A stretch of 64,000 nt of DNA from Candidatus Thorarchaeota archaeon (GTDB lineage: Archaea > Asgardarchaeota > Thorarchaeia > Thorarchaeales > Thorarchaeaceae), in the NCBI GenBank assembly GCA_038893995.1, contig JAWAQK010000001.1, positions 43,776-107,775 of the forward strand, given 5' to 3'. Each line of letters opens with the position of its first letter. The first letter of the stretch is position 1. The translations under genes were made by a program, and so were the position numbers. Shown here in pieces: positions 10,826 through 60,113 of this stretch. Below the pieces are notes generated by a model. That model did no database searches. It saw only the letters and a program-made list of their open reading frames with translations, and was not told the origin of the DNA.

Positions 10826-12970
10826 TCATCCCAGCGAGTATCTGTATCTGTCAATGAACTCTCGTTTCTTGGAGGATCCCCACGAACTCAGTGATTGGCT
10901 GTAGCCAGTGATGCGCGATATGACCTCGACGCCCACATAACCACATCTCGGGCAGGGTATCCTACTGAGTTCATCAACCGAGTTGAACTTCGTGACTCGC
11001 CAATCGATACCGCCCTGGTAGGAGCACTTTGGACAGACTAGAATGTCTTTGGTGAAAGCCCAATATGCTGCCAGAGTTTCCCGAGCGATCTTGAGGTTGA
11101 GCCTCCACAGAGCATCAGGATCAGGATCTGCCTCACCCAGGAACACGTGTGTCAGTGCGCCTCCATCCATATAGGGATGGAACATGGCCTCTTTCTTGAC
11201 GCGTTCAGTCAGAGGCAGACCCGCACCGACGTAGAGGCAAGTGCTATTCGTGTAGTAGACATCGGGGGCCTCTCCCTTCAGGTATTTCCTGATTCCTGGG
11301 TATAGCCTGTAGTCCTTCATCGCTAGTCGTCCGGCCGCGGTCTCAGCCGGCGTTCGGGTCACACCGAAATGCAGACCAGTTTCCTCCTTGAACTCGTCAG
11401 CCCTGGCCTTCAGGTGTTTCAGCACCTTTATTCCAAAGCGTGTGCCTTCCCTCTCGTGAAGAGGATATCCAGTCACTATCTCAGCCATCTCGTTAAAGCC
11501 CACCGTACCAAGCAGATACTCTCTCCTCGTGACATCAATGAGTGGCTTTCCGTTGGGCTTGGGCTGTGTGTAGAATGGCACACTGCCGCTCTCAATCAGC
11601 TTCTGCATCAGTCGCTTCTTCTCAAGAATGACGCCCTTGCAGAGCTCAATGTACTCGTCAAGCTTGGCAAAGAATCTGGCCTCGTCAGCCCGGCCGAGCC
11701 ACGCCGCACGACCGAAGTTTGGAGTGACCATCTGCGATGCTCCGAATACCATATTTCCTGTGAGGAACTCTTCCATCTCTTCCTCGCTACTTGCGGTCCA
11801 AAGATGGGAACAACAGCTACTACAACCGGCCTCAATGCTCGATCTCCAGTTGAGGTAGTTCTCAAAATAGGGTGAACCAAACTTGGCAGCCAACTCTGAT
11901 ACAAGTCGCCAAGAACCTTCGTGTTCAGGAGTCATGAACTCCTCGCGCAGGACTATGTTCGGCTTGGGGAAATTGAAGCCCTTGCCTCTGGCATCTCCTG
12001 CAATCATGACCTCCATGAATGCATCGAAGAACTCACGTGCCTCCAGGTCAAAATCGCCATAGGTGAGATCAGTGACCTTGCCTCCCGGCAGGACAGCAGG
12101 TACATCGCGCATTATCTTTGGGATTCCCGGGGTCAGATCGATTGATGAGAAGATCACCTGGCCACCACGGGCAACATATTGCTGGGTGAGTGTGAATATC
12201 AGTTGCTGAGCGGCCTGTTTGATCTCCCTAAAGGTGTGGCCTCTCATGAAGGGCGCAAGGAAAGTGTTGTAGAAGAAGAATCCCTGTCCCCCTGCGAATG
12301 AGCTCTGGGCAGCAGCTAGCCATATGGCAGAGTGATTGACGGCGACGTTCAGATGCTGAGCCGGCCCAGCAGCACTCGAATGCATGCCTCCCAGTCCATC
12401 AGGTGCGATTCCCAGAAGGAGTACCTGGCGCAGGTCCCATGTCGCACAGTAATCACGTGTGGAGAAATACTCTCTGTCCTTGATGTAGATGTCACCCCTC
12501 AGGTGTGCATCGGCCAGCTTGGGGGGAATAGTCAGATAGCAGTGTTGCTCCATGACCTGGTCGTGGACAAGTTTTGCAATCGTCTCGGGGTTGCGCATGA
12601 GATTGGCATTCGACGTGAATAGCCCAGGACTGCTTATGAGTTGGTTCAGGTCATAGATGGGTATACCGACCCGTGTATACCTGATACGCTCTGCCTCCAG
12701 CCCCATTTCCGCCAAGACACTGTTGCACATCTCACGTATCAGGGGACCAGAGAGAAACTTGATTCCGGAGGCGGCAATCCGATCCATCACCTTCAGTGCA
12801 ACTGTTCGTGCAATGGTTTCACTCATGCCGGTCTCGCGCACTAGGCTGCCCACTATACGGCTGGAGTCGAATGGTTCCATTGTGCTGCTTGTAGTACGCA
12901 CCTGGGGGAGCTTCTTCTCCCTGGACTTGACGCTCTCCAAGTCAGCACCGGTTTCTGTGATCTCGGTCAT
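10826..12970 (-). CDS. nrdD: Anaerobic (class III) ribonucleoside-triphosphate reductase with an N-terminal ATP-cone.
   Basis: 714 aa. ATP-cone region (SRIVGSLVRETGMSETIARTVALKV). C-terminal Zn site (CPKCSY...CPRCGY) and glycyl-radical motif (SRITGYSQ). Confidence 0.85.
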   Translation of the reverse strand: MTEITETGADLESVKSREKKLPQVRTTSSTMEPFDSSRIVGSLVRETGMSETIARTVALKVMDRIAASGIKFLSGPLIREMCNSVLAEMGLEAERIRYTRVGIPIYDLNQLISSPGLFTSNANLMRNPETIAKLVHDQVMEQHCYLTIPPKLADAHLRGDIYIKDREYFSTRDYCATWDLRQVLLLGIAPDGLGGMHSSAAGPAQHLNVAVNHSAIWLAAAQSSFAGGQGFFFYNTFLAPFMRGHTFREIKQAAQQLIFTLTQQYVARGGQVIFSSIDLTPGIPKIMRDVPAVLPGGKVTDLTYGDFDLEAREFFDAFMEVMIAGDARGKGFNFPKPNIVLREEFMTPEHEGSWRLVSELAAKFGSPYFENYLNWRSSIEAGCSSCCSHLWTASSEEEMEEFLTGNMVFGASQMVTPNFGRAAWLGRADEARFFAKLDEYIELCKGVILEKKRLMQKLIESGSVPFYTQPKPNGKPLIDVTRREYLLGTVGFNEMAEIVTGYPLHEREGTRFGIKVLKHLKARADEFKEETGLHFGVTRTPAETAAGRLAMKDYRLYPGIRKYLKGEAPDVYYTNSTCLYVGAGLPLTERVKKEAMFHPYMDGGALTHVFLGEADPDPDALWRLNLKIARETLAAYWAFTKDILVCPKCSYQGGIDWRVTKFNSVDELSRIPCPRCGYVGVEVISRITGYSQSLSSWGSSKKREFIDRYRYSLG

Positions 12971-13320
12971 TTTCCGTTCACCCCGACAGCCTCTCGGACT
13001 TGTTCGACTGTTGGAACCCTACCGCTCCACAAGACTGTCAGTCCCTTGCCATTCTCAACAAGAATGGTGGGCGTTGATGCAATAAAGACTTGTGCCTCTA
13101 ACAGTCTGTACTCGAAGTCAGGGTCCATCTCATCAAGATCAACTTCCTTAACAGACACACACGTTCCCTCGAGGGCCTCAGACAGTACCAGCTTTGCAGC
13201 TGGACAATTGACGCACCCCTTCTGTGTGATCAGATAGACCGTAGTCAAGTCAGCTTGTCCTCCCGACGACATCTGCAAGCACCCGGCGCCTGTATTGATC
13301 ACAGGTACTGGAGATGACAC
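12967..13320 (-). CDS. Glutaredoxin/NrdH-like redoxin.
   Basis: CVNC active site preceded by a beta-strand (TVYLITQKGCVNCP). Overlaps the nrdD start by 4 nt. An alternative start at the internal Met (13272) gives a 101-aa protein. Confidence 0.6.
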   Translation of the reverse strand: MSSPVPVINTGAGCLQMSSGGQADLTTVYLITQKGCVNCPAAKLVLSEALEGTCVSVKEVDLDEMDPDFEYRLLEAQVFIASTPTILVENGKGLTVLWSGRVPTVEQVREAVGVNGK

Positions 13321-13610
13321 CTACGGTTGAATAAAAGTCTTGGCACACCGGAATCTTCCAGCATGGAGCGCTCTGTAGGCTCTTGGAGCCCTTGCTCGAA
13401 CGGGTGTGATACATTGTCAGAGTCATGTGCCCGGTGACCCTTAAGAGCTCCTACGAGGAACACTTCCAGAATCAGGTCGGGCGAATTGCAGTCGCACCGG
13501 ATGACTCGTGACGCGAGAGGGGGACAGGACTCGCTGCACTGCTCACCCCTCCTTGCAGGATTGCGCCACAGACACCTGGACGGAATTGCTAAGACGACCG
13601 TGTTCTGACC

Positions 13611-14318
13611 ATGTCACGAAGGCAAGGAGAATCTCCAGAGAGGACAACAAATCATAATAGGTTCATGCAGAACGACGCCAACAGGTACGAGGCAATGCCC
13701 ATCTATCTGAGAGCAAGGACGCCCGCGGCTGGATGGCGAATGGTTGTAAGAAGAATCATGGAATCGGGAAACACTAGACTTGACGAGCGAGGACTGGAGA
13801 CCCTTTGGCTCGACAACGTGATGATCCACGTCCAGGATCCCTACACCGACAGACTGGCATCCGAGTACCCATTCAGCGAGGATGTGATCAAGAACAAGTA
13901 CGCAACTCAATTACTCACGCCTGACAGGTTGGACTTCGAGTATACGTACGGTGAACGACTCAATGCTTGGGGTGACGAGAGGATCAACCAGGTACAGTAT
14001 GTAATAAGGAAACTTCGAGAGAACAAGAATACCCGTCGCGCCGTGGCGACCACCTGGGACCCGAGGAGGGACCACAAGACTGACGAGGTCCCCTGCCTGA
14101 ACCATTTCGTGTTCATGACCAGAGAGGAGGAACTGGATGTCTCGGTAATGATCAGGTCCAACGACATGTTTGGTGCATGGCCGGCGAACGTCTATGGAGT
14201 GTCGGAGCTACTCAGAAAGATCTCAGCAGACACTGGACTCCGACCGGGAAGAGTCACGACCCTGTCAGTCAATGCTCACATATACAGACACGACTGGGAG
14301 AGAGCATCTACAATCTGA
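13611..14318 (+). CDS. thyA: Thymidylate synthase (ThyA family, short archaeal type).
   Basis: RRAVATTWDPRRD, the catalytic PC in EVPCLNHFVFM, and RSNDMFGAWPANVYGVSELL together match ThyA core motifs (Cys nucleophile, RSxD, GxPxN). Confidence 0.6.
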   Translation: MSRRQGESPERTTNHNRFMQNDANRYEAMPIYLRARTPAAGWRMVVRRIMESGNTRLDERGLETLWLDNVMIHVQDPYTDRLASEYPFSEDVIKNKYATQLLTPDRLDFEYTYGERLNAWGDERINQVQYVIRKLRENKNTRRAVATTWDPRRDHKTDEVPCLNHFVFMTREEELDVSVMIRSNDMFGAWPANVYGVSELLRKISADTGLRPGRVTTLSVNAHIYRHDWERASTI

Positions 14319-14346
14319 TTGGCAGAGCGGTTGTCTTCAATACAGG

Positions 14347-15009
14347 ATGGGCCAGATAGTGACGGAGCGTGCTGCAATGAGACATTCGAGTCGAGGACTA
14401 TCCGATCTGGATGACACTGATCGAAGCATAGTTGCAATACTTCGGTCCAATGGACGTACTAGTCTGTCTCAGATAGGTAGGCGGCTTGGCCTGTCGCACG
14501 TTGCAATCAAGAACAGGATCGACAGGCTGGTCAGGAGGGGACTCCTTCGAGTATCAGCCAACCTAGGTCTGACGAAATTGGGAATGCGTGTGATGTTTAT
14601 CCTATTGACTCTTGACGACCCCAAGTGTGCGGACCACCTGGCAGCAAAGTACTCTGGGTGTCCTCGTGCACTGATAGTAACTCAGCTGACAGGGAAGTAT
14701 CATCTCGCAATGACTATTGTTGCAGAGGACGACAAGTGCCTCGAGTCAATCAGCATGAATCACTCCGTACTGAGAGAGCCGTGTGTGAGCAATGCCGAGC
14801 TCCATAGGGGAACAGTGGTTGCGGAGTCCCGGCATCTCCCCACGGATGTCATACAGGAAACCAACAGCAACTGCAGTACAGCATGCGAGAGATCATGTGC
14901 TGAGTGCAGCCACTATCGCTCAAGGGACTGCCCCGCGTGTCCCGGCACTGTGTGGTACAGATGCAGTGGTGCCGGTCCCTGTGTCAATGGCAGCATGAGG
15001 AAGAGTTAA
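14347..15009 (+). CDS. Lrp/AsnC-family transcriptional regulator with a Cys-rich C-terminal tail.
   Basis: HTH region DDTDRSIVAILRSNGRTSLSQIGRRLGLSHVAIKNRIDRLVRRGLL followed by a RAM-like domain. The tail is CSTACERSCAECSHYRSRDCPACPG. Start chosen at the internal ATG 14347, just after the thyA stop. The ORF track starts at 14170, overlapping thyA. Confidence 0.6.
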   Translation: MGQIVTERAAMRHSSRGLSDLDDTDRSIVAILRSNGRTSLSQIGRRLGLSHVAIKNRIDRLVRRGLLRVSANLGLTKLGMRVMFILLTLDDPKCADHLAAKYSGCPRALIVTQLTGKYHLAMTIVAEDDKCLESISMNHSVLREPCVSNAELHRGTVVAESRHLPTDVIQETNSNCSTACERSCAECSHYRSRDCPACPGTVWYRCSGAGPCVNGSMRKS

Positions 15010-15043
15010 CTCGCCATCGTGAAGGGTTCAGCACGGTGTCTGC

Positions 15044-15634
15044 ATGACAGGCAAGTTCATACATCCTCTTGCGGTCGTCGAGGAAGGAGCTACAATAGGC
15101 GATGGGACCCGGATCTGGCACTTTGCCCATGTCAGGTCTGGAGCCCGGATTGGTGAGAACTGCAACATTGGAAAGGACGTATACATTGACGCGGGTGTGA
15201 CGATAGGAAACCGTGTCAAGATACAGAACGGGGTATCAGTATACCACGGTGTGAGCATCGAGGATGATGTGTTCTGTGGGCCACACATGACCTTTACAAA
15301 TGACATGTACCCCCGTGCGTTCTCGTCCAGCTGGGAAGTCGTGAAGACCCTCGTTAAGAGGGGTGCATCAATAGGGGCACATGCAACAATCGTATGCGAT
15401 ACAGTCCTTGGGGAGTATTGCATGGTCGGCAGCGGCGCGGTCGTGACCAGAGATGTTCCTCCCCACGCACTGGTGGTGGGCAATCCAGCCCGCATAATAG
15501 GATTTGTCTGCTTCTGCGGACAACCTCTGAGAGAGGAGGTACATCGGACTGGCGAGGAAGTAGTATTTAGATGCGGGAAGTGTCGCGAGCAGGTCACGAT
15601 ACCAGTGTCCGTCTACAATCAGAGAGTTGAGTAG
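15044..15634 (+). CDS. Hexapeptide-repeat (left-handed beta-helix) acyl/acetyltransferase.
   Basis: Repeated [LIV]-G-x-x-x-x hexads (IGDGTRIWHFAHVRSGARIGENCNIGKDVYIDAGVTIGNRVKIQNGVSV). 196 aa, with a C-terminal CxxC...CxxC tail. Confidence 0.7.
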   Translation: MTGKFIHPLAVVEEGATIGDGTRIWHFAHVRSGARIGENCNIGKDVYIDAGVTIGNRVKIQNGVSVYHGVSIEDDVFCGPHMTFTNDMYPRAFSSSWEVVKTLVKRGASIGAHATIVCDTVLGEYCMVGSGAVVTRDVPPHALVVGNPARIIGFVCFCGQPLREEVHRTGEEVVFRCGKCREQVTIPVSVYNQRVE

Positions 15635-15639
15635 AGTCC

Positions 15640-17724
15640 TTGGCTCATCTGTACAAGAGATTCGTTGGAGAGAAGGTCGTAGGTCTCCTTGAGAACATCA
15701 AGAACATCAGGAACTGTACAGTGATTGCCCACATCGATCATGGAAAGACGACCCTGACAGACTCCCTCATTGCAGCGTCGGGCCTCCTATCGGACGACCT
15801 GGCTGCGTCTGTGAAGCTCCTAGACTACGATGCCATTGAGCAACAGAGAGGCATTACTATCAAGGCATCCAGCATATCGCTGGTCCATAGGAGGAACGGA
15901 CAGGACTTCCTAATACACCTGATCGACACACCGGGCCACATAGACTTCTCATTCCACGTCACCAAGGGACTCAGGATGGCAGACGGAGCCATCGTCGTGG
16001 TTGACATAGTCGAGGGTATAATGGTACAGACTGAGACTGTGACACGTCAGGCGGCCACTGAACTCGTCAGACCAGTGTTGTTTGTCAACAAGATAGACAG
16101 ACTGATATCTGAGAAGCAATACGGAGCCCAGAGGATCGCGTCAGAGGCGGGTCGAATCGTAACAGAGTTCAACGCAATGCTAGGCAAGTATCTACCCGAT
16201 GAGATCCTCAGTGAATGGGAGGTGTCATTTCGACGAGGGTCCCTGGTCATCGGTTCGGCTCTGGACAAATGGGGAATTGACATCGTTGCACTCATGCATC
16301 GGGCCGGAAACGATCGGCAGCCCAGGAAACTCGAGAGAGCACTCATGGAGATCCTTGAGGATATCGTGTCCCTATACAGAGAGGGTCAGGAGCAGGTCCT
16401 CTCGAGAAGATATCCACTGGCCAGGTGCGTCCTAGACGCAGTCGCTGATAGCGTGCCCAGTCCGGATGTTGCCCAGTCATATAGAGTCAGACACTTCTGG
16501 CGTGGCGATACTGAGTCTGACGTTGGTAGGGCCCTGCTGAGATGCGAGAGAGATACGGGCTGCATAGTGTCCGTGGGCGATGTTCAGTCAGACAGACATG
16601 CTGGGACTGTCGCAGCCGTACGCGTGATGACTGGCAGGCTCACAAGAGGTCATGAACTACGGAATCTGAGGACGGGGAAGGTGTCAAGAACCCTGCAGGT
16701 AGGGCTATTCATGTCCAAGACCAGGGTTCCTGTCGATACAGTCCCTGCGGGAAATCTCGCATTCATCACTGGCATTTCCGAAGTGGCAATTGGCGACACG
16801 CTCGTGGAGGGGGACATGCCCAAGATCCAGCCGCTTGATGAACCTCAGTATCCAACTGAACCCGTCGTCACCTACAGTGTGGAGCCCAGGAACCTCGCGG
16901 ACCTGAAGAACATACAGGAACCAATCATGAGGATGGTCCAGTCGGACCCTTCACTCGAGTTCTATGTGAGTCCGGACTCTGGCGAAAACCTGCTCTCGGG
17001 AGCTGGCGAACTTCACATCGAGATAGTGGTGGAGAAGTTGGCCAGAGAGGGAGTGGAGATAGTCGTTGGGAAGCCGATGGTAGTACTCAAGGAGCAGATG
17101 GCCCACGATGGGGAGACCCAAGAAGCGGGAGGAGGAGATGTCAGCTGGTTCAGGGTCCGTGCCCTGCTCACACCAGAAGGACTTGAGTCACCGCCTCCCG
17201 GTACCGTATTCTCAGATGCAAGACAGGGATGCTACCTAGTGGACCAGACAGGCACCATCAACGCACAAAGTCCGGCGTTCGAGTGGGTGGTCGACGGATT
17301 CAAGACCCTGATACGTAATGGGCCTGTGTCCGGGGAGAGGATGAGACGGTTGACAATCAGGATCGAGGATGCCACGATAGTTGCAAGCACACCTGAAACA
17401 TCGTGGAGGGATGTCACACAGCCACTGATTGATGCGTCTAGGGCCAGCATCCTGAGTGGTAAGCCCATGCTGATGGAGCCATGGACAAGGCTTGAGATCA
17501 ACACCCCTGGCCAATACGTCGGTGACGTGAGTGCAATAGTAGCCCGTAGGGGAGGCAGGATAATCGATCTGACTTCGACCAGGTTCATGTTCAAGATAGA
17601 GGCCGAGATACCAGTGAGACAGTCATTCGGATTCTCGACGGAGCTGAGGACTGCGACATCAGGATGGGCGACCTGGGGCGCGCGCTCGGGCGGATATCGA
17701 CCAGTCAGCAATGATAGATCATGA
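15640..17724 (+). CDS. Divergent EF-2/EF-G-family GTPase paralog.
   Basis: G1 AHIDHGKTT, G3 DTPGH, G4 NKID and five-domain length (694 aa). Domain IV reads EDATIVASTPETSWRDV with no His at the diphthamide position. It lies 5 bp downstream of the acyltransferase gene. Confidence 0.8.
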   Translation: MAHLYKRFVGEKVVGLLENIKNIRNCTVIAHIDHGKTTLTDSLIAASGLLSDDLAASVKLLDYDAIEQQRGITIKASSISLVHRRNGQDFLIHLIDTPGHIDFSFHVTKGLRMADGAIVVVDIVEGIMVQTETVTRQAATELVRPVLFVNKIDRLISEKQYGAQRIASEAGRIVTEFNAMLGKYLPDEILSEWEVSFRRGSLVIGSALDKWGIDIVALMHRAGNDRQPRKLERALMEILEDIVSLYREGQEQVLSRRYPLARCVLDAVADSVPSPDVAQSYRVRHFWRGDTESDVGRALLRCERDTGCIVSVGDVQSDRHAGTVAAVRVMTGRLTRGHELRNLRTGKVSRTLQVGLFMSKTRVPVDTVPAGNLAFITGISEVAIGDTLVEGDMPKIQPLDEPQYPTEPVVTYSVEPRNLADLKNIQEPIMRMVQSDPSLEFYVSPDSGENLLSGAGELHIEIVVEKLAREGVEIVVGKPMVVLKEQMAHDGETQEAGGGDVSWFRVRALLTPEGLESPPPGTVFSDARQGCYLVDQTGTINAQSPAFEWVVDGFKTLIRNGPVSGERMRRLTIRIEDATIVASTPETSWRDVTQPLIDASRASILSGKPMLMEPWTRLEINTPGQYVGDVSAIVARRGGRIIDLTSTRFMFKIEAEIPVRQSFGFSTELRTATSGWATWGARSGGYRPVSNDRS

Positions 17725-17728
17725 GAGC

Positions 17729-20032
17729 TCAGGAACGTATGTAGGACCTACGGTTGAGGACCGAACCGAGATGGACCATCACTCTACGCTCCACCATCGC
17801 AACACCATCCATCATCCGGACTGCACGAGAGATATTCGAGAGCACTGCATTCATGTACGGTTGTACCCTTGTCGGCTCTCCTTGAGCCATCATCCCTATG
17901 TAGGCATTGGTTATCTTTACTAGTCCTAGCCAGTCCTCGGGAAGTAGGAATGAAGACTCAAGGAACATATCATCTGATGGAATGGTTTCGGTGTGATCCA
18001 CAGACACCTCGTACTGAACCTCAAGGGCACTTAGAAGTCGCGAGAGCATATTTGTGAACGACGTTGCAACTGAGAGAATGAACTCACGAGACTCTGAGAT
18101 CGATGAGTCTTCTGAATGACATCTTCCGAATGACACGGCAGCTTGATGCAGCAGAGGAGCCAGTTCCTGGTGATTCCTGTTCTCGAAGAAGAGTCGGATT
18201 CCACTAGCCAGCAGGGCCTGGCCCTCCCAGTATCTTGTCAGGACGGGGTCAATATCATGTACCGAGAACTGCTCAGGACTGACGATGCCACTGACTGTTT
18301 CCGTACCAAGAGGTTGGATGTTTATCTTTGCTGTAGCAAAGGCCGCCATCAGCCTACCTACATCTCTGAGTTCAGAGTTGCGCTCCACGAGACTGAGGGC
18401 CCTTCTCTTGAGTTGGAACCAGTCACCGAACATCAGAGGCACAGCGAGTGATATTCCTTCAACGATCGAGGGACTGTCAGGAGGGCACAAGTCAAGGATC
18501 ATCCTATCCAGATCAAGAATGACCCTGCGCAGTCGCTCAGGAATGAATAGTCTATGCCTCAGAGAGAGCCAGGCAATATCGTACAATGCGATTGCGGCCT
18601 CGACAAGAGCACGCGAGTCAGAGGGAAAGAGTCGCATGTAGCGCAGTAGAGATTCACTCAGGAGATCGTTCGCACGGTCATCAATCGTTTCGGACTCACA
18701 GATTGCCGCGAGGCCCAATCCAACCATGGAGCTCAGTAATGCAATCTCCAGGCATTGACCCTTGTTGAGTAGAGATGTCCTCATCTCTACAGAACGCTGA
18801 AACGACTCAACTGCGGCAGACCGAAACTCTGCAGACTCCGAGAGTAGACAGGCCCAGCCAATAGCATGCAGACAACTGGCGATCTCAGACATCATGTCGT
18901 TCTCTGGAGACTTCAGGTCGTCTGCGACTTTCTGAGCCCGGCGGAGGTAGTCGATTGCAAGTGCTGTGCCGTCATCACTTCCGGTCAGGCTGTGGGCATG
19001 GCCGAGACCTACTAGGCAGCGCAGCAATGCCATCCGCTGCTCTCTTGTCGGGTCCTCGATCGATTCATAGACTGCGAGAGCCGCGTTCAGGCGTTCTACG
19101 GCCTGGGGTATCGCCTCCCGCCACCCACCAATGAGTATCGTCGAACCTACTAGAAGATATGCTGCCGCGAGATCGCCCCTGGTCATAAGACCTGCATCCA
19201 CGCTTCTCTCGTACTCCTGCAGTGCACGGTCAGCAAGGTCACGGGCAGTCTGATAGCTCACACCTTCGTCTCGCGTCTCATTTATCGCAAGCTGGAGAGC
19301 CAGTTGAATCCGTGATGCGGGCGGGAGTTCGGAGCCCATCTCTGATTCAAGCTGTTTCAGTAGACTCCTGGAGCGATCGAAGAGTTCCAGGTCAGTAAGG
19401 ACGGAGGCGAGGTCCAGGGTGAGGTCCAGCAAGAGGTCTCTGAATCCCAGCTGTCGTGATACTGAGAGTAGCCGGTCCAGGAGTGGTTCGGCACACTCTG
19501 CAAGGCCTTCATCCATCAGGGACCTGGCCAGGTAGTGCACCTCGGCCACTGCCAACTTGGTGAAGGATATCTGGTCACGGGCGATGATCGAGTCTAGCGT
19601 ATGGAGTGTTTCGTCAGCCAGGAATGCCAAGAGGGGACGTAGACCATGCCCTAAGGAGACTGACATGGACTGGCCCAGCTCACCAAGCAGGTCAATCAGA
19701 ATTGGCAGAGCCTCAAGATCGGGAAGGTCCTCCGCCGCCGTACGTCTGTACTCATTGGTGAACCTGGTGTCCAGTAGAGATATCAGCTCTGACAGCTCCG
19801 ATGTCTTATCAAATGAGTGACGCACGATGAGTTCAAGGAACTTGTAGTTTGCAAGTGCCGGCCTTCTGAGAAGCACTTCCTCGAGGGCTCGTGCCAACTC
19901 ATGACCCAGTTCATGAGAGTCGGGGGAGAAACGTGAGATTCCTTGAAGTGCAGCGAGACCATCGTCGAGGGAGACAGATGCACACAGTAGGTCCCTCAAG
20001 ATTGTCCGAATCCTTGGATCCAAACAGTTCAC
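17729..20032 (-). CDS. Large helical-repeat (TPR/HEAT-like) hypothetical protein.
   Basis: 767 aa, Leu/Ala/Glu/Arg-rich, predicted all-alpha, no catalytic motifs. Sits 47 bp downstream of the KaiC-like pair on the same strand. Confidence 0.5.
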   Translation of the reverse strand: MNCLDPRIRTILRDLLCASVSLDDGLAALQGISRFSPDSHELGHELARALEEVLLRRPALANYKFLELIVRHSFDKTSELSELISLLDTRFTNEYRRTAAEDLPDLEALPILIDLLGELGQSMSVSLGHGLRPLLAFLADETLHTLDSIIARDQISFTKLAVAEVHYLARSLMDEGLAECAEPLLDRLLSVSRQLGFRDLLLDLTLDLASVLTDLELFDRSRSLLKQLESEMGSELPPASRIQLALQLAINETRDEGVSYQTARDLADRALQEYERSVDAGLMTRGDLAAAYLLVGSTILIGGWREAIPQAVERLNAALAVYESIEDPTREQRMALLRCLVGLGHAHSLTGSDDGTALAIDYLRRAQKVADDLKSPENDMMSEIASCLHAIGWACLLSESAEFRSAAVESFQRSVEMRTSLLNKGQCLEIALLSSMVGLGLAAICESETIDDRANDLLSESLLRYMRLFPSDSRALVEAAIALYDIAWLSLRHRLFIPERLRRVILDLDRMILDLCPPDSPSIVEGISLAVPLMFGDWFQLKRRALSLVERNSELRDVGRLMAAFATAKINIQPLGTETVSGIVSPEQFSVHDIDPVLTRYWEGQALLASGIRLFFENRNHQELAPLLHQAAVSFGRCHSEDSSISESREFILSVATSFTNMLSRLLSALEVQYEVSVDHTETIPSDDMFLESSFLLPEDWLGLVKITNAYIGMMAQGEPTRVQPYMNAVLSNISRAVRMMDGVAMVERRVMVHLGSVLNRRSYIRS

Positions 20033-20079
20033 CCGCGATGCGGGTTGACTATTTCATTGGACTGTTAAAGACTTCCGTA

Positions 20080-20787
20080 TCAGCTGAGTCTGAACTCGAC
20101 CCACGCGCGCTTGGTCTCAGTCCCTCTCATTCTCTCCATCCGCACGAAGAACTTGGGAGTATCGCTAGTATCATCCACCCTGAATCTCAGGACCGCATCT
20201 GCGGAGTACGCGAAGCTGGCATACGTCTTGTCGTCATGTACCCCCTCCTCGAGAATGTACATGATACTGTGAGAACCCTGAGTCAGTCGACCGCTGAGTC
20301 TTTGCACGGCCTGAGGTAGAGCTGCAGCACTGGAACTCATGATGAGTGTCGTCAGGCTGTCAACCACGACTCTTGCAACTACAAGTTTCTCCAGCGCCTC
20401 CGTGAGGACGATTCCAAGCTCTGTTATGTCGTCGACCTTTGAGAGTGAGTAGGGACTTGTGCTCTTGACGCCCATCCGGTCCGAATACCCATCTACAAAG
20501 GTGAACATACCATTTCGCTCGTGCTTCTCGATCGGCCAACCATGTCGGCTCATGTCGTTTCGTATCACTCTGGGAGATACATCTGTCGTCACAAAGACCG
20601 CAGGGAAACCCAGCACTAGCCCCTCGGCGAGATATGCCTCGGCATACGTGGTCTTTCCAGAGCCTATCGGCCCCAGTAGCAATATCGACTGTTGAGTCAG
20701 TTGGCCAAACTCGACCAGGTCTCCTAATGTGGGGCTCACCTTGACAGGGTTGCGTTCGTCGATTCGACTATCATCTCGAGCCGTCAA
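20080..20787 (-). CDS. KaiC/RadA-like single-domain RecA-superfamily ATPase.
   Basis: Walker A LLLGPIGSGKTT. Walker B region VVVDSLTTL. 235 aa. Confidence 0.7.
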   Translation of the reverse strand: MTARDDSRIDERNPVKVSPTLGDLVEFGQLTQQSILLLGPIGSGKTTYAEAYLAEGLVLGFPAVFVTTDVSPRVIRNDMSRHGWPIEKHERNGMFTFVDGYSDRMGVKSTSPYSLSKVDDITELGIVLTEALEKLVVARVVVDSLTTLIMSSSAAALPQAVQRLSGRLTQGSHSIMYILEEGVHDDKTYASFAYSADAVLRFRVDDTSDTPKFFVRMERMRGTETKRAWVEFRLS

Positions 20788-20814
20788 TCAATTCACCTCT
20801 CGGATCTAGCTGAT

Positions 20815-21558
20815 TCAGCTGCCGGGGCTTATCTCAGTAGGCCAGACCCGAATACCCTCGTCAGTGATTCTCATGGAGTGTATCCTGGAGCTGTGCTTGG
20901 ATCCTCGGAGCTTCAATACCTCGATCGAACGGGAACGCGACGTGTCGCTTATCTTCTCGTTGTAGAGCACAATGACGCCTGATGCAAGGAAGGCTTCGAT
21001 GTCAAATACGCCCAGTCCGGTGTCCTGTGCAGGTATCTCTGATGTCAGCAGCAGGGTGGCACCTGTGCCTGTTATCTTGGAGCACATCTTGAAGAACTCT
21101 TCTCTGAGAATGTCTCTGCTCCTGAACTTGTATGCAAGGATTGATAGGGTGTCTATGACTACTCTCTTGGCATTCACCTTCTTCATGTTGCTCAGGATGA
21201 TTGACACTAGTGCCGACAGGTCGAAGCTCGGATACTCCTCCACCATGACGGGAGAGGGACGTGACGGTGACAGGTCTACGATCGCCAGCATACCCTGGTT
21301 CTCTAGTTTCTCGAGGTCCATGCCAAATCTCAACATGTTGCGCTTTATGAGGTGAGGGGGCTCCTCGAGAGTGACAAGCACGCCAGGTTCTCCGTATTCG
21401 GTGGCTCCCTTATACAGGAACTGGTTTGCGAGAATGCTCTTCCCAGTACCTGCCTTTCCTGCAATGAGTATGGTGTCACCTCTGGGAAAACCTCCCTCTA
21501 TCAGTTCGTCGAGTCCCGGGATTCCGGTCTTGACTCTATCAATTTGGTAGCCGGTCAT
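20815..21558 (-). CDS. KaiC/RadA-like single-domain RecA-superfamily ATPase.
   Basis: TGIPGLDELIEGGFPRGDTILIAGKAGTGKS (Walker A) and VVIDTLSIL (Walker B). The start is either the internal Met (MTGYQIDRV, 21558) or 21588. Confidence 0.7.
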   Translation of the reverse strand: MTGYQIDRVKTGIPGLDELIEGGFPRGDTILIAGKAGTGKSILANQFLYKGATEYGEPGVLVTLEEPPHLIKRNMLRFGMDLEKLENQGMLAIVDLSPSRPSPVMVEEYPSFDLSALVSIILSNMKKVNAKRVVIDTLSILAYKFRSRDILREEFFKMCSKITGTGATLLLTSEIPAQDTGLGVFDIEAFLASGVIVLYNEKISDTSRSRSIEVLKLRGSKHSSRIHSMRITDEGIRVWPTEISPGS

Positions 21559-21910
21559 CTGGAACACCTCTACGTTTTCTGTATCCAAGGATCATCCTGA
21601 GGATTGACTCTGGTTCGGGTATGCCGGTTATGGAGGCACCTCCGATCATTATCGTCGGAGCAGCGAGTACCCCATAGTACTGTGCGACTTCTGGCTCTTG
21701 GACCACATCAATCTCTCGCAGAGTGAACATGTCAGTATCAAACTCGCCAAGTATGTCTAGCAGTACCTGTTTAGCTCGCGGACAGAAGGGGCATTCATCG
21801 TGGCTAAAGAAGAGGACCTCAACCTTCGAGGATTCCTTCCCATCTTTGGAGCACCCTTCTTCATCAGACGGAGCCAACGAGACGCACTCCCTGTCCTGTG
21901 TGACCTCCAA
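21539..21910 (-). CDS. Thioredoxin/glutaredoxin-like protein (CPFC active site).
   Basis: VLFFSHDECPFCPRAKQVL ... PTIMIGG is a thioredoxin-fold pattern. 123 aa with an acidic N-terminal extension. Same operon as Roadblock and the KaiC-like genes. Confidence 0.55.
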   Translation of the reverse strand: MEVTQDRECVSLAPSDEEGCSKDGKESSKVEVLFFSHDECPFCPRAKQVLLDILGEFDTDMFTLREIDVVQEPEVAQYYGVLAAPTIMIGGASITGIPEPESILRMILGYRKRRGVPDDRLPN

Positions 21911-21948
21911 CTGTGGAGCTGTGCTCTATTGAATGTTATTGCGTCGGC

Positions 21949-22335
21949 CTAACGACGATATGCCATCATCTTTCGTATCTTGGTCGCCACTTTCCCGAGC
22001 GACCGAGAGTGATATCTGAGATGCCGAGGCATCACTGCGGCCAAGAGGAAGGACTGCCCACTGTCGACCAATATCTTGCGGACGACAAACTTTCCCTCCG
22101 AACAACGAATGGAGATCTCGGAGAGCTCCCCAAGCAGCAGTTCGTTCCGGAGACGCTCAACGGAGGAGGCCACATAGCCAGACATTGCAGCAACGATGTC
22201 ACGGTTTGTGGTGGGGGATGCTGAGGATGCCATGAGTAGGCCGTCATCTCGCGCAAGGATTGATGCGACATAGCCTCCGTTTCTGACCATGTCATCAAGC
22301 ATCTCGGTCAATGCCCTGTAGTCAGGTCTTTCCAT
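21949..22335 (-). CDS. Roadblock/LC7 (MglB-like) domain protein.
   Basis: 128 aa. GGYVASILARDDGLLMAS...AAMSGYVASSVERL...SEISIRCSEGKFVVRKILVDSGQSFLLAAVM matches the Roadblock/LC7 alpha-beta-alpha pattern. Confidence 0.7.
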   Translation of the reverse strand: MERPDYRALTEMLDDMVRNGGYVASILARDDGLLMASSASPTTNRDIVAAMSGYVASSVERLRNELLLGELSEISIRCSEGKFVVRKILVDSGQSFLLAAVMPRHLRYHSRSLGKVATKIRKMMAYRR

Positions 22336-22482
22336 GTGAATCGCTCCGTCATCCCTAATCGATTGCGCATTTTTCTTTTAAAGGATGAGGTCACATCCCC
22401 TGCTCCAGTATCTTGCAGTTGCACTCACAACATAGTTTTAAGTTAGGCTCCAAATGTGAGTCAGACGAGGATGTGATGTCGT

Positions 22483-23031
22483 TTGACTGCCGAATATAGA
22501 TTCAAGGTGGTCATGCTCGGTGATGGCGCGGTAGGGAAGACTGCGCTCACCAACATGTTCACGCAGGGCCACTTCATCTCCGAATACAAACGGACGATTG
22601 GGTCAGACTTTGCAGTCAAACGTGTCTCAGTACCCCAGAGGAATGCACAGGTCACTCTCCAGGTATGGGACTTGGCAGGACAACCACGATTCGAGATAGT
22701 CAGGCAATCTTTCTATCGTGGAGCAAGAGGAGGATTGCTTGTCTACGATGTCACACGACGCAGGACATTCCTGAACCTCGATCACTGGAGACAGGAAACT
22801 AAGAACAGTCTGAGTCGCGAAATACCCCTGGTCGTGGTCGCCAACAAGGTGGATCTGACAGGCGCACGCGTCGTGACGAGGGAGGAGGGAGAACAGTATG
22901 CTGCCAAGAGCGGACTCATATATGTGGAGGCAAGTGCACTCACAGGCCAGAACGTAGAGGATGCATTCGTGGAACTATGTGTCGAGATGATCGACGAGTC
23001 AAAGTCGGAAGCGAGATCTCAGACAGGTTGA
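22483..23031 (+). CDS. Rab/Ras-like small GTPase (Asgard type, no C-terminal prenylation motif).
   Basis: G1 GDGAVGKT. Switch I YKRTIGSDF (Rab-like TIGxDF). G3 WDLAGQ. G4 NKVDL. G5 EASA. 182 aa. Confidence 0.8.
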   Translation: MTAEYRFKVVMLGDGAVGKTALTNMFTQGHFISEYKRTIGSDFAVKRVSVPQRNAQVTLQVWDLAGQPRFEIVRQSFYRGARGGLLVYDVTRRRTFLNLDHWRQETKNSLSREIPLVVVANKVDLTGARVVTREEGEQYAAKSGLIYVEASALTGQNVEDAFVELCVEMIDESKSEARSQTG

Positions 23032-24179
23032 CCCTTCAAGAGGCCTAGATGCTTCTTGCACTGCCAGACGATATAGAAGATGGTCTTGTCCTGCAACACC
23101 TCACTGCCATATTGTGACATCAGGGACTCGAACCTGCGTACCAGATCAACCCTTCTCTCGCCTGCAGTATCGCTCTCGATCTCTCGCAGCAGTGCCTGGA
23201 GGGGCTCAATCATTGCAGTCCTGTCGACGATTTCCCACCGCCTTATTGCTCCGGTGGACTCACAGGTCAGGAACTCGTTCGAATCTGCCACCCATTCTAG
23301 AGAGTCCGGTTCGCCCCGTGTCATTGTCTCGGCCTGCCTAGTGAAATCACTTGTCCGCCACAGGAAGATGTTCTTGTCAGCAGACCCAGACGCAATAAGG
23401 GACCCATCGTGGTTGAATCCCACACAGCGGACCTCTTGTGTATGTCCTGTGAGTGTCTTCTCATGTCTGAGCTGCCCGTCTGAGGCGTCCCAGACCATGA
23501 CCGTCTGATCAGAAGATGCCGAGGCCACCCTGGTACCGTCCCTGGAAAAGCGCACCTGATGCAGTGCAGATCTGTGTTCTTGGAGCCACTCTATCCTCTC
23601 ACCAGTCGTCGGATCCCAGAGACCAATCATCGCATCGACACCACCGGACACTATCCGATCTCCACGAGGATCCCAGTCGCAGGACACTACGTATAGAGAA
23701 TGGCCCTTGAGCTGTCTCAGTGGCTTGGAACTGCCGATGTCCCACACCATGAGGGTCGTATCGCCACTCGATGACACTAACCTATCGCAGTCGGGAGAGA
23801 AGGCGAGCGACAATATGGGATACCGATGACCCTCGAGACGACATATCAACTCTGCACTCCTGACGTCCCAGACCTTGATAACCCTGTCAACACCACCAGA
23901 CGCTATCACATCACTCCGGGGGCTGAATGCAAGGGCTGTGCACAGGAAGTCGTCTGTGATTCGCTGGACCTCTTGGCAGTCTCTCGCATCGTACAGACGT
24001 ATTGTTCGGTCCTGATGAGCAGCAGCGAACATGCGTCCCACTCTGTTGATGGTGAAACGACGAATGATGTCGTCAGCAGTTTCCGCCTCGGGTCTTAGCA
24101 GCCTAGGACGAAGAAACAATGATGGTACGGACTCCGTCATCTTGCTCACCAGAGTGATTGTCATCGTCTCAAGCAGCAT
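23019..24179 (-). CDS. WD40 repeat (7-bladed beta-propeller) protein with a C-terminal helical tail.
   Basis: Seven GH...WD-type repeats (VWDVRS, MVWDIGS, IGLWDPTT, VMVWDASD, IFLWRTSD, IRRWEIVD). The C-terminal roughly 70 aa are non-WD. Starts 82 bp downstream of the second Rab-like gene on the same strand. Confidence 0.8.
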   Translation of the reverse strand: MLLETMTITLVSKMTESVPSLFLRPRLLRPEAETADDIIRRFTINRVGRMFAAAHQDRTIRLYDARDCQEVQRITDDFLCTALAFSPRSDVIASGGVDRVIKVWDVRSAELICRLEGHRYPILSLAFSPDCDRLVSSSGDTTLMVWDIGSSKPLRQLKGHSLYVVSCDWDPRGDRIVSGGVDAMIGLWDPTTGERIEWLQEHRSALHQVRFSRDGTRVASASSDQTVMVWDASDGQLRHEKTLTGHTQEVRCVGFNHDGSLIASGSADKNIFLWRTSDFTRQAETMTRGEPDSLEWVADSNEFLTCESTGAIRRWEIVDRTAMIEPLQALLREIESDTAGERRVDLVRRFESLMSQYGSEVLQDKTIFYIVWQCKKHLGLLKGQPV

Positions 24180-24261
24180 ATCTAAAAAGAGTTGTGAGGA
24201 TGCGATGGGCCCCTCAAGTCAGTATGGTATGGGTGGCTGGTGGTCCGAAGATGAGCATGGC

Positions 24262-24834
24262 TCAGAGAGTACTCTGGCCAATCGACTCGACCATCATGAT
24301 GATGAGCTCAATGAATGCCTTCTCCACGTTGTGTCCGGTCTTGGCAGATGTTTCAAGGAAGACCGTGCTGACCCCACTTTCTCTGAGCGCCTGTGTGAAC
24401 TTCTCACCCTCCTGCGTCGTGACTATCGATCCCTTCATGGCAGGATTGTCCTTGAACTGGTCCCGGAGATCAGTCTTGTTGCCGATGACTACAATAGGAA
24501 TGGTCTTGCCTGTGTTCGCCCAGCACTCCTCAAGCCAGTTGGGAAGATTATCAAATGACGAACGTTCCACAGTCGAGTATACAGCCAATGCTCCCTGGGC
24601 ACCCTTGTAGAAGGTTGATCGTACGTTCTTGAAGTGAGCCTGTCCAGCAAGATCCCATATCTGGATGTGCACCTCTGTGCCACTCTCAAGTGCCAGTTTT
24701 TTCACTGCGAAATCGGCGCCGATGGTGACCATGTATGAGGCCTTGAAACCTTCGCCCATGTAGGTCCGACGGAGCGAAGTCTTACCTACTGAGCCGTCGC
24801 CCATGAGAACTATCTTGAACAATGCTCTCGGCAT
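24262..24834 (-). CDS. Rab/Ras-like small GTPase.
   Basis: G1 GDGSVGKT. TIGADF. WDLAGQ. GNKTDL. ETSAKTGHNVEKAF. 190 aa. Confidence 0.8.
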   Translation of the reverse strand: MPRALFKIVLMGDGSVGKTSLRRTYMGEGFKASYMVTIGADFAVKKLALESGTEVHIQIWDLAGQAHFKNVRSTFYKGAQGALAVYSTVERSSFDNLPNWLEECWANTGKTIPIVVIGNKTDLRDQFKDNPAMKGSIVTTQEGEKFTQALRESGVSTVFLETSAKTGHNVEKAFIELIIMMVESIGQSTL

Positions 24835-29219: not shown

Positions 29220-29378
29220 ATTGCTCCTTGGGGTGTGCGGCGGGCGCGCAGTTTCGATGCTAATCGGTCCTAAATAACATTATGACCGGGCCTCGACACT
29301 AGGATTGACAGACGCCAAACGATATCAGGCATGATGAGATGGTGCCCCTCAGGGAGCCATCACCTGTCTGGCAGTTCC

Positions 29379-31251: not shown

Positions 31252-31264
31252 GGGGTGCTGAGAC

Positions 31265-31957: not shown

Positions 31958-31960
31958 GAG

Positions 31961-32896: not shown

Positions 32897-32918
32897 CAGA
32901 TGTCGAGGAATCCGGTCA

Positions 32919-57887: not shown

Positions 57888-60113
57888 CTAACCAGTACGC
57901 TTGTAGACGAATCGAGACCAGTTGCTAATGGTCGGAACTTCAGCTGGCAGATTCTTCCTCTTTCGGATGTCGGCTATCTTCGACTCACTCAGATGGGACG
58001 GTAGCGGTTCGAACCCGCGGAACTCGTATCCAAAGAAGCTTCTGCCTGACGTCGCGCCACGAAACTCATCCGCGATACCGATGGTCTCTGCGGTAGGCAA
58101 GGTCCCTCTGACTGTTACTGTATCCTCCTCTGCATCGATGGTGAGAATCTGTCCCCTGTGGCCGGTCAAGACCTTGATCACCTGCCCCTGAGTGTCTGTA
58201 GGGGTCTTGATGTCCACGTTCAGGACGGGTTCGAACAGCACAGGGGCTCCGGTCAGAAACGACATGTTGAGTGCCGCTCCAGTCATCGTTGCAACTTCGC
58301 TGTAACCCGTGTGGGCAGGATCAGTGTGTATTGTGGCATCTGTAATGACTGCTTTTACGCCCATGACGGGCTCGCGTGCCAGTGGACCCCCATCAATGAA
58401 TTCCCTGAACGTCGCCTGGACATACGGAAAGATCCGATCAAATCGCTGCACTCCAGTCATTGCGTCAATGAGCATCGACGTCTCGTATATGTCAATGATC
58501 TTTCGGGCCTCCTTCGGGTCCCATCCTGCCTCTGCACGAAGTATCTCTGCCCTGTCCTTTGCGTTCTGTTCCGCAGTGATCTTCTTCTTGCGAATTAGCT
58601 CGAGAGTCTTCTCGTCCAGTGGCTCGAGGTACATCTTGATGCGGTTGTGACCGTTTGGTGACTTGGTGTGGAACTCCTCGCCGCGCTGAGTCATGCGTTC
58701 CCTGTAAACTATGATGGGCTCTGAGACCTTGATCTTGACCTGCTCGTCGATTCGCTTGGTCAATATCTCGATCTGAAGCGGGTCAATACCATCAAGGCGA
58801 TACTCTCCTGACTCCTTGTCGTGAACGAACCGAGCAGTAGGATCAGCCATGATCCACTTGGAAACGACCTCGCCAAGTCTGGCTATGTCCTGTGGGTCCA
58901 CGGGCTTTATGCTCCTGCTAACTACCGGCTCACAGACGTACTCTATGGCCTCGAAGCCGGGGATATCAGAGTCTGGGTCAACAAAAGACTCACCCGAGGG
59001 ACACATGAATCCAAAGATCGAGAACAGGTTGCCTGCAGGTACTTCGTCAATGTCAAGGATATCAGTTATCTCCTGGACACCAAGCCTGCGCACTCGGGCG
59101 TTCTGTTTCATATTGACTAGTCTGATCTCCTGACCTGACCTCAGGGTGCCCGAGAAGAGACGACCAATGAGGGTGGGCCTCTTGCTCTTGGGATCTACGA
59201 ATATCTTCGTTATCATACCGACAAGGGGTCCCTTCGGATCGCAGTTCAATAGTGCCTGACCCGCAGGACTATTCAGGTCACCTCTCCATATTCGCGGAAT
59301 CTTGTACTTCTGGGCCTCCCTGGGGTTTGGCAGGTGCTTGACTATCATCTCGAGTAGGGCATCGTCAAGCGGTAAGTTCTCCCTGAGCCATCTGTCGTCG
59401 CCAGACTGATACTTCTCAAAGACGACCATAGGATTGACGTTCTTCCTCCTGAGGACGTTGGACGTGAAGGCCCATCCAGTCTTGGCGCTACCTATGGCAA
59501 CACTGCCTGCCTGGAAGCTCACCTGCCAGTCCTTTGCATGCTCGGGCGGTGCCACCTTTCTGATCAGCTCGTTGACCTTGGCAATGATCGCATCAATACG
59601 TTCTGATACTTTCTTGGGTGGTAGCTTCAGCTCATTGATTAGTCTGTCGACCTTGTTGACGAAAAGGACTGGTTTGCAACCCTCACCACCCACTGAGAGA
59701 CGGATGTTTGTTTCAGTCTGGGTCATGACACCCTCGAGTGCGTCCACCAGCAGAACAACACCATCACTGGCACGCAACGCGCGTGACACCTCGCCAGTGA
59801 AGGACAGGTGACCTGGCGTGTCCGAGAGCTGAACTAGGTACTCCTCTCCGTCGATCTCAAAGTTCAGCAGCACTACGGATGTGAATATCGTGATACCTCG
59901 GGCCTTCTCTTCCTCATCACTGTCAGTGAGTAGGGCCTGACCAGCCTGTGCATCGCTCATGAGACCTGCTGCACGCAGAAGATAGTCTGACGTAGTCGTC
60001 TTGCCATGATCAATATGTGCACTGATCGATATTATCCGCTTGTGCTCAAAGTCGTCAGACTTGATGAGATTCTTGATGGCCTCAGGATCCTTGATCTTGA
60101 CCAATGTGTTCAC
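57888..60113 (-). CDS. fusA: Translation elongation factor 2 (aEF-2), the canonical-type paralog.
   Basis: AHIDHGKTT, DTPGH, NKVDR. Five-domain layout. Domain IV reads DATIHTDPAHTGYSEV. No in-frame ATG upstream of the G-domain. A GTG start at 60113 gives a typical roughly 30-aa lead before G1. The ORF track runs to 60182, also from GTG. Confidence 0.8.
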   Translation of the reverse strand: MNTLVKIKDPEAIKNLIKSDDFEHKRIISISAHIDHGKTTTSDYLLRAAGLMSDAQAGQALLTDSDEEEKARGITIFTSVVLLNFEIDGEEYLVQLSDTPGHLSFTGEVSRALRASDGVVLLVDALEGVMTQTETNIRLSVGGEGCKPVLFVNKVDRLINELKLPPKKVSERIDAIIAKVNELIRKVAPPEHAKDWQVSFQAGSVAIGSAKTGWAFTSNVLRRKNVNPMVVFEKYQSGDDRWLRENLPLDDALLEMIVKHLPNPREAQKYKIPRIWRGDLNSPAGQALLNCDPKGPLVGMITKIFVDPKSKRPTLIGRLFSGTLRSGQEIRLVNMKQNARVRRLGVQEITDILDIDEVPAGNLFSIFGFMCPSGESFVDPDSDIPGFEAIEYVCEPVVSRSIKPVDPQDIARLGEVVSKWIMADPTARFVHDKESGEYRLDGIDPLQIEILTKRIDEQVKIKVSEPIIVYRERMTQRGEEFHTKSPNGHNRIKMYLEPLDEKTLELIRKKKITAEQNAKDRAEILRAEAGWDPKEARKIIDIYETSMLIDAMTGVQRFDRIFPYVQATFREFIDGGPLAREPVMGVKAVITDATIHTDPAHTGYSEVATMTGAALNMSFLTGAPVLFEPVLNVDIKTPTDTQGQVIKVLTGHRGQILTIDAEEDTVTVRGTLPTAETIGIADEFRGATSGRSFFGYEFRGFEPLPSHLSESKIADIRKRKNLPAEVPTISNWSRFVYKRTG

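Follow-up and report, generated by a model that had tools for sequence, protein, structure and literature searches.

Two genes of the elongation factor 2 (EF-2) family lie in the 64,000-nucleotide stretch of DNA analyzed here (the window), which comes from a Candidatus Thorarchaeota archaeon (assembly GCA_038893995.1, contig JAWAQK010000001.1, positions 43,776 to 107,775). The gene at 15640-17724 is very probably (about 85%) a Thorarchaeota member of the published aEF-2p family, a duplicated EF-2 that stands beside a modified, functional aEF-2 at 57888-60113. An earlier note, made from the sequence alone, had reported two EF-2-family genes, and both open reading frames (ORFs) exist as it described. 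Each sequence feature by which aEF-2p has been defined was found, so the two genes correspond to the known aEF-2/aEF-2p pair.

EF-2 and diphthamide were long held to be universal single-copy features of archaea and eukaryotes. Two EF-2 proteins and no diphthamide-synthesis (dph) genes were described in most Asgard archaea, some Korarchaeota, and a few Bathyarchaeota, with Thorarchaeota among the lineages carrying aEF-2p (Narrowe et al. 2018, PMC6143161). In that account, aEF-2 of dph-lacking lineages has R702T, E660R/K, and a nonconserved K584, while aEF-2p keeps G1 to G5 but neither domain IV loop nor the diphthamide His, and its loops show no conservation at all (PMC6143161). Among Asgard archaea, only Hodarchaeales retain dph genes and a single EF-2 (Eme et al. 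2023). The window pair fits the 2018 description feature by feature, in line with the earlier note's statement that EF-2 paralogs and altered diphthamide loops had been reported in Asgard archaea: the paralog shares the five-domain EF-2 fold, G1 to G5, and the loss of both loops and the His, and its partner likewise has R702T, E660R, and a lost loop Lys. None of the diphthamide-synthesis Pfam families occurred among the 46 ORFs scanned, which represent a 64-kb window and not a genome.

Nothing essential distinguishes the window gene from aEF-2p as published; the gene family is known, and its presence in this lineage had been reported before. Not found in PMC6143161 are the PETSWRD(V/I)TQPL motif conserved within Thorarchaeota, an approximately twofold rate gap with domain IV least conserved, and a phylogenetically limited pairing with an acetyltransferase gene. 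The extent of domain IV trimming can be added, as both a helical insert of domain IV and the C-terminal tail are missing from the Thorarchaeota clade as well. These additions are modest. The features of the two genes are as follows.

15640..17724, + strand: aEF-2p, EF-2-family GTPase paralog; 694 amino acids (aa), TTG start, uninterrupted ORF, Pfam and NCBIfam domain matches
15727..15750, + strand: G1/P-loop AHIDHGKT, from the translation; seven of eight residues invariant and the eighth at least 90% conserved in 50 homologs
15925..15939, + strand: G3 DTPGH with the catalytic His100, from the translation; invariant in the 50 homologs
16087..16098, + strand: G4 NKID, from the translation; N150, K151, and D153 invariant in the 50 homologs
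17119..17160, + strand: replaced second domain IV loop, QEAGGGDVSWFRVR instead of the K-SPN(R/K)HN type, from alignments
17368..17427, + strand: replaced diphthamide loop and tip helix, DATIVASTPETSWRDVTQPL, from the translation; Glu586 at the position of the diphthamide His
57888..60113, - strand: aEF-2, presumed working translocase of the dph-minus Asgard type; end-to-end alignment to 5h7j, 588 bits
58305..58328, - strand: diphthamide-type loop HTDPAHTG of aEF-2, from the translation; His601 kept, R702 changed to T

The paralog is an EF-2-family five-domain protein closer to archaeal and eukaryotic EF-2 than to bacterial EF-G, since its best matches in both the PDB and NCBIfam were archaeal EF-2 and not EF-G. 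Pfam recognized GTP_EFTU, domain 2, EFG_III, and EFG_C strongly, with EFG_IV below threshold (16.7 bits versus a cutoff of 24). The NCBIfam aEF-2 model (TIGR00490) matched in two stretches with 518.1 bits, under its curated cutoff of 738.45 bits, and the bacterial models scored 267 bits for EF-G (cutoff, 659), 217 for TypA (757), 180 for LepA (534), and 153 for tet_protect (775). Both window EF-2 proteins scored far higher on the aEF-2 model than on the EF-G, TypA, LepA, and Tet models. Among PDB sequences searched with phmmer, the best match of the paralog was P. horikoshii EF-2 (5h7j), with scores of 465 bits for aEF-2, 297 for eEF2, and 218 for EFL1 (5anb). Aligned directly to the window's own aEF-2, the paralog was 30% identical and carried a 13- to 14-aa insertion in G'.

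The GTPase center of the paralog is complete. Nearly all residues of AHIDHGKT, RGITI, DTPGH, NKID, and GSA were invariant in the 50 homologs and the remainder were at least 90% conserved, in agreement with the earlier note, which had all G motifs retained. Its view that the 694-aa ORF is intact and no frameshifted pseudogene also held: the frame is uninterrupted, and more than 120 clusters of intact homologs (approximately 690 to 715 aa, 56 to 62% identity) were found. In the family alignment, homologs have the same first position and the N-terminal consensus MSHLYKKFV, which supports the TTG start.

Domain IV of the paralog lacks the diphthamide His and the loops that extend to the decoding center in a bona fide aEF-2 translocase. 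In the phmmer alignment, DAQVHEDNVHRGPAQ of P. horikoshii EF-2 (5h7j) paired without gaps with DATIVASTPETSWRD/DATIVASTPETSWRDVTQPL of the paralog, placing Glu586 at the position of the diphthamide His, Val581 at that of the upstream His, and VASTPETS opposite HEDNVHRG. The His-less domain IV peptide in the earlier note is thus the one found at 17368-17427, and the possibility raised there that correct gapping might restore the His can be set aside, as the alignment has no gaps in this region and no His was recovered. The same alignment was interrupted between residues 490 and 526. In the second loop, the paralog has GGGDVSWFRV where the window aEF-2 has KSPNGHN, and across the paralog family only S502 and F504 of this loop were conserved. 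Compared to the window aEF-2, the paralog is also shorter by approximately 28 aa in the domain IV helical insert and by a C-terminal tail of approximately 34 aa.

The earlier note had called the gene at 57888-60113 canonical. The part of that description that stands is the retained His; its loop reads HTDPAHTG (R to T), its second loop SPNGHN, and its score on the NCBIfam aEF-2 model was 670 bits, under the cutoff of 738. Pfam found GTP_EFTU, domain 2, EFG_III, and EFG_C, with EFG_IV strong at 58 bits. The motifs HTDPAHTG, SPNGHN, and RFDR correspond to R702T, loss of the loop Lys, and E660R, and all three changes were invariant in 120 Thorarchaeota aEF-2 homologs that were 78 to 85% identical; H, D, P, A, H, T, and G of the HTDPAHTG loop were each present in 120 of 120. 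This aEF-2 is a specific and strongly constrained variant, not a textbook canonical EF-2. Its start is ambiguous among the longest ORF from 60182 (764 aa), a GTG at 60113 (741 aa), and a TTG at 60104 (738 aa). The true start may be the TTG, as a deposited identical protein (P0294) has the 738 aa that this codon predicts, and most homologs have 737 aa. Both P0294 and a partial sequence (P0001), each 100% identical to a window protein, are NCBI entries labeled Thorarchaeota, and assembly GCA_038825165.1 has an identical aEF-2 with the same neighbors.

Conservation within Thorarchaeota was compared using the alignment of 50 paralog homologs and that of 120 aEF-2 sequences. Where source names were given, nearly all paralog clusters were labeled Thorarchaeota. 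Mean column identity in the 50-sequence alignment was 71%, with approximately 160 invariant columns, which indicates that the paralog is under purifying selection. Divergence of aEF-2p was nonetheless approximately twice that of aEF-2 (56 to 62% versus 78 to 85% identity). The same gap (56 to 58% versus 80 to 83%) was seen in pairs in which the two proteins probably share a contig (P0014/P0301, P0059/P0332, P0101/P0320, P0104/P0346, and P0062/P0340). Expressed as mean pairwise column identity, the values per domain were as follows.

G core: aEF-2p 0.81, aEF-2 0.92
G': aEF-2p 0.59, aEF-2 0.82
Domain II: aEF-2p 0.63, aEF-2 0.84
Domain III: aEF-2p 0.75, aEF-2 0.91
Domain IV: aEF-2p 0.50, aEF-2 0.80
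Domain V: aEF-2p 0.74, aEF-2 0.85

Domain IV was the least conserved domain of aEF-2p, and the best-conserved stretch inside it was the replaced loop, PETSWRD(V/I)TQPL. At this tip, W589, R590, T593, and P595 were invariant in the Thorarchaeota family and E586 was at least 90% conserved. The motif was confined to the Thorarchaeota clade; in P0121, the closest relative beyond it (43% identity), the position reads TISENLDAA, and the Odin, Hel, Loki-type, Heimdall, and Kor paralogs have unrelated sequences at the tip position, each different from the others. When genome contigs were searched with the patterns DTPGHIDF and DxIEQ[EQ]RGI, only two of the matches listed (L001 and L002) were true aEF-2p loci, and the remaining listed matches were canonical EF-2 or EF-G.

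A rough neighbor-joining tree based on distances (107 sequences, 659 columns, 50 bootstraps) placed the window paralog within a Thorarchaeota clade with 100% bootstrap support, followed by P0121 (98%) and an Odin sequence, P0122 (100%), as successive sisters. The paralog grouped with Asgard aEF-2p sequences and not with aEF-2 in this distance tree, the deep nodes of which were unresolved, as in published maximum-likelihood trees. The window aEF-2 paired with another HxxxxHT sequence (100%). The 100% support for the Thorarchaeota clade, together with synteny in four loci, supports vertical inheritance of the paralog. Orthology with Snu114 or EFL1/Ria1 was rejected: a clade of eukaryote-length proteins that includes His-less members was separate with 100% support and left the paralog outside, and by PDB score EFL1 trailed both aEF-2 and eEF2. 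The Snu114/Ria1-like kinship suggested in the earlier note, if taken as orthology, is not supported by these results; a Ria1-like function of aEF-2p is possible.

An AlphaFold2 model based on the alignment of 50 paralog sequences had a mean pLDDT of 81.7, with most domain IV blocks at 76 to 94. It showed the usual five-domain layout, with the ETSWRD residues starting the domain IV tip helix. A Foldseek search of the model against the PDB returned archaeal EF-2 first (6u45, TM 0.74), then eEF2 and Snu114; it returned only these three and gave no further functional hint.

Comparison with known factors places the paralog nearest to canonical archaeal EF-2 (TIGR00490, 5h7j) in both sequence and structure, with the same domain order, GTPase motifs, and conserved domains III and V. 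It differs from that protein in the absent diphthamide His, a score of 518 bits against the cutoff of 738, a domain IV smaller by approximately 60 aa, and the G' insertion. EFL1/Ria1 and Snu114 also derive from EF-2; they retain the GTPase but no diphthamide His and no longer serve in translocation, and functionally they are the closest analogy for labor divided after duplication. They arose by independent duplications, however, and at 694 aa the paralog lacks the length extensions of the eukaryotic type. Tet(M)/Tet(O), EF-G2, LepA/EF4, and BipA provide a precedent as factor-site GTPases with changed domain IV tips and nontranslocation jobs, but they belong to the bacterial lineage, score much lower, and have other solutions in domain IV or the C-terminal domain.

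Additional His-less members of the EF-2 family were seen among representative proteins. A well-supported clade of short proteins (approximately 630 to 675 aa) contained P0147, P0155, P0168, P0172, P0175, P0176, P0215, P0217, P0221, P0222, P0237, and P0239, and further His-less groups were P0150/P0154 and P0161/P0166/P0173/P0187. These groups suggest paralog diversity beyond the named Asgard and Kor groups. EF-2 homologs of 1,035 to 1,233 aa (P0128, P0131, P0140, P0143, P0145, P0148, and P0152) had three separate matching stretches, the first of them starting deep inside the protein, consistent with intein-containing or N-terminally fused genes.

Domains III and V contact the ribosome in EF-2 and EF-G. 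With its complete GTPase center, well-conserved domains III and V, and a reduced and fast-evolving domain IV, aEF-2p is most likely a ribosome-dependent GTPase other than the translocase. The GTP form of aEF-2p would bind the ribosomal factor site and hydrolyze GTP there, normal tRNA-mRNA translocation would be left to aEF-2, and the GTP-driven domain movement of aEF-2p would serve an accessory task on the ribosome. Because the domain IV tip is nearly fixed in Thorarchaeota and different in every other phylum, its target is more likely a partner or site specific to the lineage, and less likely the codon-anticodon helix, which is universal.

What the accessory task might be can be approached by analogy. 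The eukaryotic EF-2 paralog EFL1 has the task of releasing eIF6. Sulfolobus has one aEF-2, and it frees 50S subunits of aIF6 (PMC8024482). After duplication, aEF-2 may have kept translocation while aEF-2p took a nontranslocation job of the ancestral aEF-2, such as release of aIF6 from the 50S subunit. This division of labor is slightly favored as a tentative proposal. A narrower and more speculative version is that the Thorarchaeota aEF-2p is an independently evolved counterpart of EFL1, acting in aIF6 release or large-subunit licensing with its PETSWRD tip on a protein partner. If so, the EF-2/EFL1 division of labor would have arisen twice, in Asgard archaea and on the eukaryotic stem.

Several points weigh against a role as a nontranslocating ribosomal GTPase. 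Literature searches found no published biochemistry or structures of aEF-2p and no structures of Asgard ribosome-factor complexes, and we infer from sequence that aEF-2p binds ribosomes, is active as a GTPase, and does not act as a translocase. When the residues of the groove that binds the aP1 stalk in PhoEF-2 (PMC5887453) were mapped onto both window proteins, the critical F226 was a Leu in aEF-2p, directly after the 13-aa insertion. The same site is a Pro even in the bona fide window aEF-2, so it is not diagnostic for stalk binding. No translation-related clue appeared among the gene neighbors in the window, in the related loci L081 to L083, or in the Odin, Hel, Heimdall, and Loki-type loci. 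In addition, aIF6 release by itself does not explain why the paralog tracks the loss of dph genes.

Narrowe et al. put forward another hypothesis (PMC6143161). Here, aEF-2p would compensate for missing diphthamide as a back-translocase, or as a frame-maintenance or rescue factor, on translating 70S ribosomes beside an unmodified aEF-2. Presence of aEF-2p goes together with dph loss and with correlated aEF-2 changes (PMC6143161), and the window pair has those changes. Conservation of domain III (0.75), the small-subunit contact in EF-G and EF-2, suggests action on whole ribosomes, and a conserved Trp-Arg at the domain IV tip is compatible with RNA stacking. A tip that differs in each phylum examined, however, is unexpected for a reader of the universally conserved decoding center, and some dph-lacking lineages (Geoarchaea and some Korarchaeota) have no paralog (PMC6143161). 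Back-translocation or diphthamide compensation is the main alternative, doubtful in itself and about as plausible as the aIF6-type division of labor.

A rather unlikely alternative is a stress, hibernation, or ribosome protection factor that sits at the factor site when ribosomes or subunits are idle or that clears a ligand from the A site as Tet(M) does. Canonical EF-2 and eEF2 have been seen on hibernating or dimerized ribosomes (9ou7 and 9rvu), and Narrowe et al. drew a parallel with Tet proteins, in which domain IV tips are likewise unconserved (PMC6143161). An intact and highly conserved GTPase center points instead to turnover and not to passive occupancy, and no stress-related neighbors or regulators were identified around the examined loci or among the window ORFs.

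Directly upstream of aEF-2p is a hexapeptide acyltransferase gene.

15044..15634, + strand: WlbB-type left-handed beta-helix N-acetyltransferase with a C-terminal CxC...CxxC, possibly a zinc ribbon; Pfam Hexapep, PDB 3mqg (181 bits)

The spacing of 5 bp given in the earlier note is exact (TAG agtcc TTG), and the two genes are codirectional. Codirectional transferase genes were found 3 to 22 bp upstream of aEF-2p in four loci from Thorarchaeota and one sister lineage, with coordinates of 7410-7997 in L081, 7387-7995 in L082, 7281-7994 in L083, and 1-546 in L084, the locus of P0121. Three of these are Thorarchaeota loci (L081 to L083), with aEF-2p proteins 57 to 61% identical to that of the window, in which the gene order matched window positions 10826-24834. 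This order runs from NrdD, a thioredoxin, a ThyA-like protein, an AsnC-type regulator (absent in one locus), and the hexapeptide transferase to aEF-2p (3 to 6 bp after the transferase), a convergent protein of approximately 766 aa without Pfam hits, two KaiC-like ATPases, a thioredoxin, a Roadblock protein, a Ras/Arf GTPase, and a WD40 protein. In L084, aEF-2p was immediately flanked by the transferase on its upstream side and by the KaiC/Trx/Arf block on its downstream side. For the Odin, Hel, Heimdall, and Loki-type loci of aEF-2p, the context was wholly different, with no adjoining transferase.

This arrangement bears on the idea that the acetyltransferase works with or modifies aEF-2p, for example through a new posttranslational modification replacing diphthamide. 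In its favor are the close codirectional spacing in divergent loci, a transferase 65% identical (including the C-terminal Cys pairs) between lineages whose aEF-2p proteins are just 43% identical, and the fact that Narrowe et al. had raised an alternative domain IV modification (PMC6143161). The enzyme is nonetheless a near-full-length match to WlbB-type nucleotide-sugar N-acetyltransferases, which act on small molecules, the pairing is no property of the family as a whole, and adjacency may merely reflect gene order, as the whole 12-gene neighborhood is conserved. A functional link of this kind is very unlikely, and the acetyltransferase was dropped as a family-level clue. Because the context differs in other Asgard loci and the transferase is WlbB-like, the pairing is read as lineage-specific gene order, possibly with cotranscription.

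A decaying duplicate, a misbinned contaminant, or a transferred bacterial EF-G might be suspected from the fast evolution relative to aEF-2 and the subthreshold domain IV, but these were effectively ruled out by the intact ORF in the window and in the homolog clusters, invariant catalytic motifs, the presence of both EF-2 genes in the same 64-kb window, synteny among Thorarchaeota loci, an aEF-2 score far above that for EF-G, and a position inside the archaeal part of the tree.

The paralog shows that the archaea most closely related to eukaryotes duplicated their translocase and put it to new use, parallel to the EFL1 and Snu114 duplications. This point was already made in 2018; the window adds one more instance and makes the role of aEF-2p no more testable. 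The Thorarchaeota-specific conserved tip offers E586, W589, and R590 as targets for mutagenesis. For annotation, NCBI calls aEF-2p homologs and many aEF-2 homologs "GTP-binding protein," JGI calls both "elongation factor 2," and completeness marker sets that count EF-2 as single copy misjudge genomes with aEF-2p.

Other genes near aEF-2p provided additional observations. The 767-aa protein at 17729-20032 (-) has no Pfam family and a weak TPR_12 match, and it is convergent with aEF-2p, their stop codons lying 4 bp apart. Its position was kept in the three Thorarchaeota loci (765 to 794 aa), and it was absent from L084. The block at 20080-24834, also found in L081 to L084, encodes two KaiC-like ATPases (one also matching DUF7504), a thioredoxin/glutaredoxin-like protein, a Roadblock/LC7 protein, two Ras/Arf-family small GTPases, and a WD40 propeller, and forms a cluster of eukaryote-signature-type proteins adjoining aEF-2p across lineages. 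A third Arf-like gene was found at 61607-62440. An HflX-type ribosome-associated GTPase at 34395-35756 (-) is approximately 17 kb from aEF-2p, and one at 6599-7897 in L084 is approximately 4 kb away; this proximity may be coincidence.

Upstream of the transferase, the ThyA-like ORF at 13611-14318 (+), near NrdD and thioredoxin, matched the thymidylate synthase profile over its C-terminal half only (profile positions 89 to 218 of 266). It overlaps the ORF at 14170-15009 (+) by approximately 150 nucleotides, and homologs of both are approximately 207 aa, with the true starts of both probably further downstream. The AsnC-type regulator has a Cys-rich C-terminal tail, CSTACERSCAECSHYRSRDCPACPG. 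Elsewhere in the window, a MtrH-MtrA-MtrH-DUF2114 cluster at 30334-34355 (+) encodes subunits of the tetrahydromethanopterin S-methyltransferase type in a nonmethanogen, with genes for CofE (F420 ligase) and a LarC-type nickel insertion protein nearby at 27864-30173.

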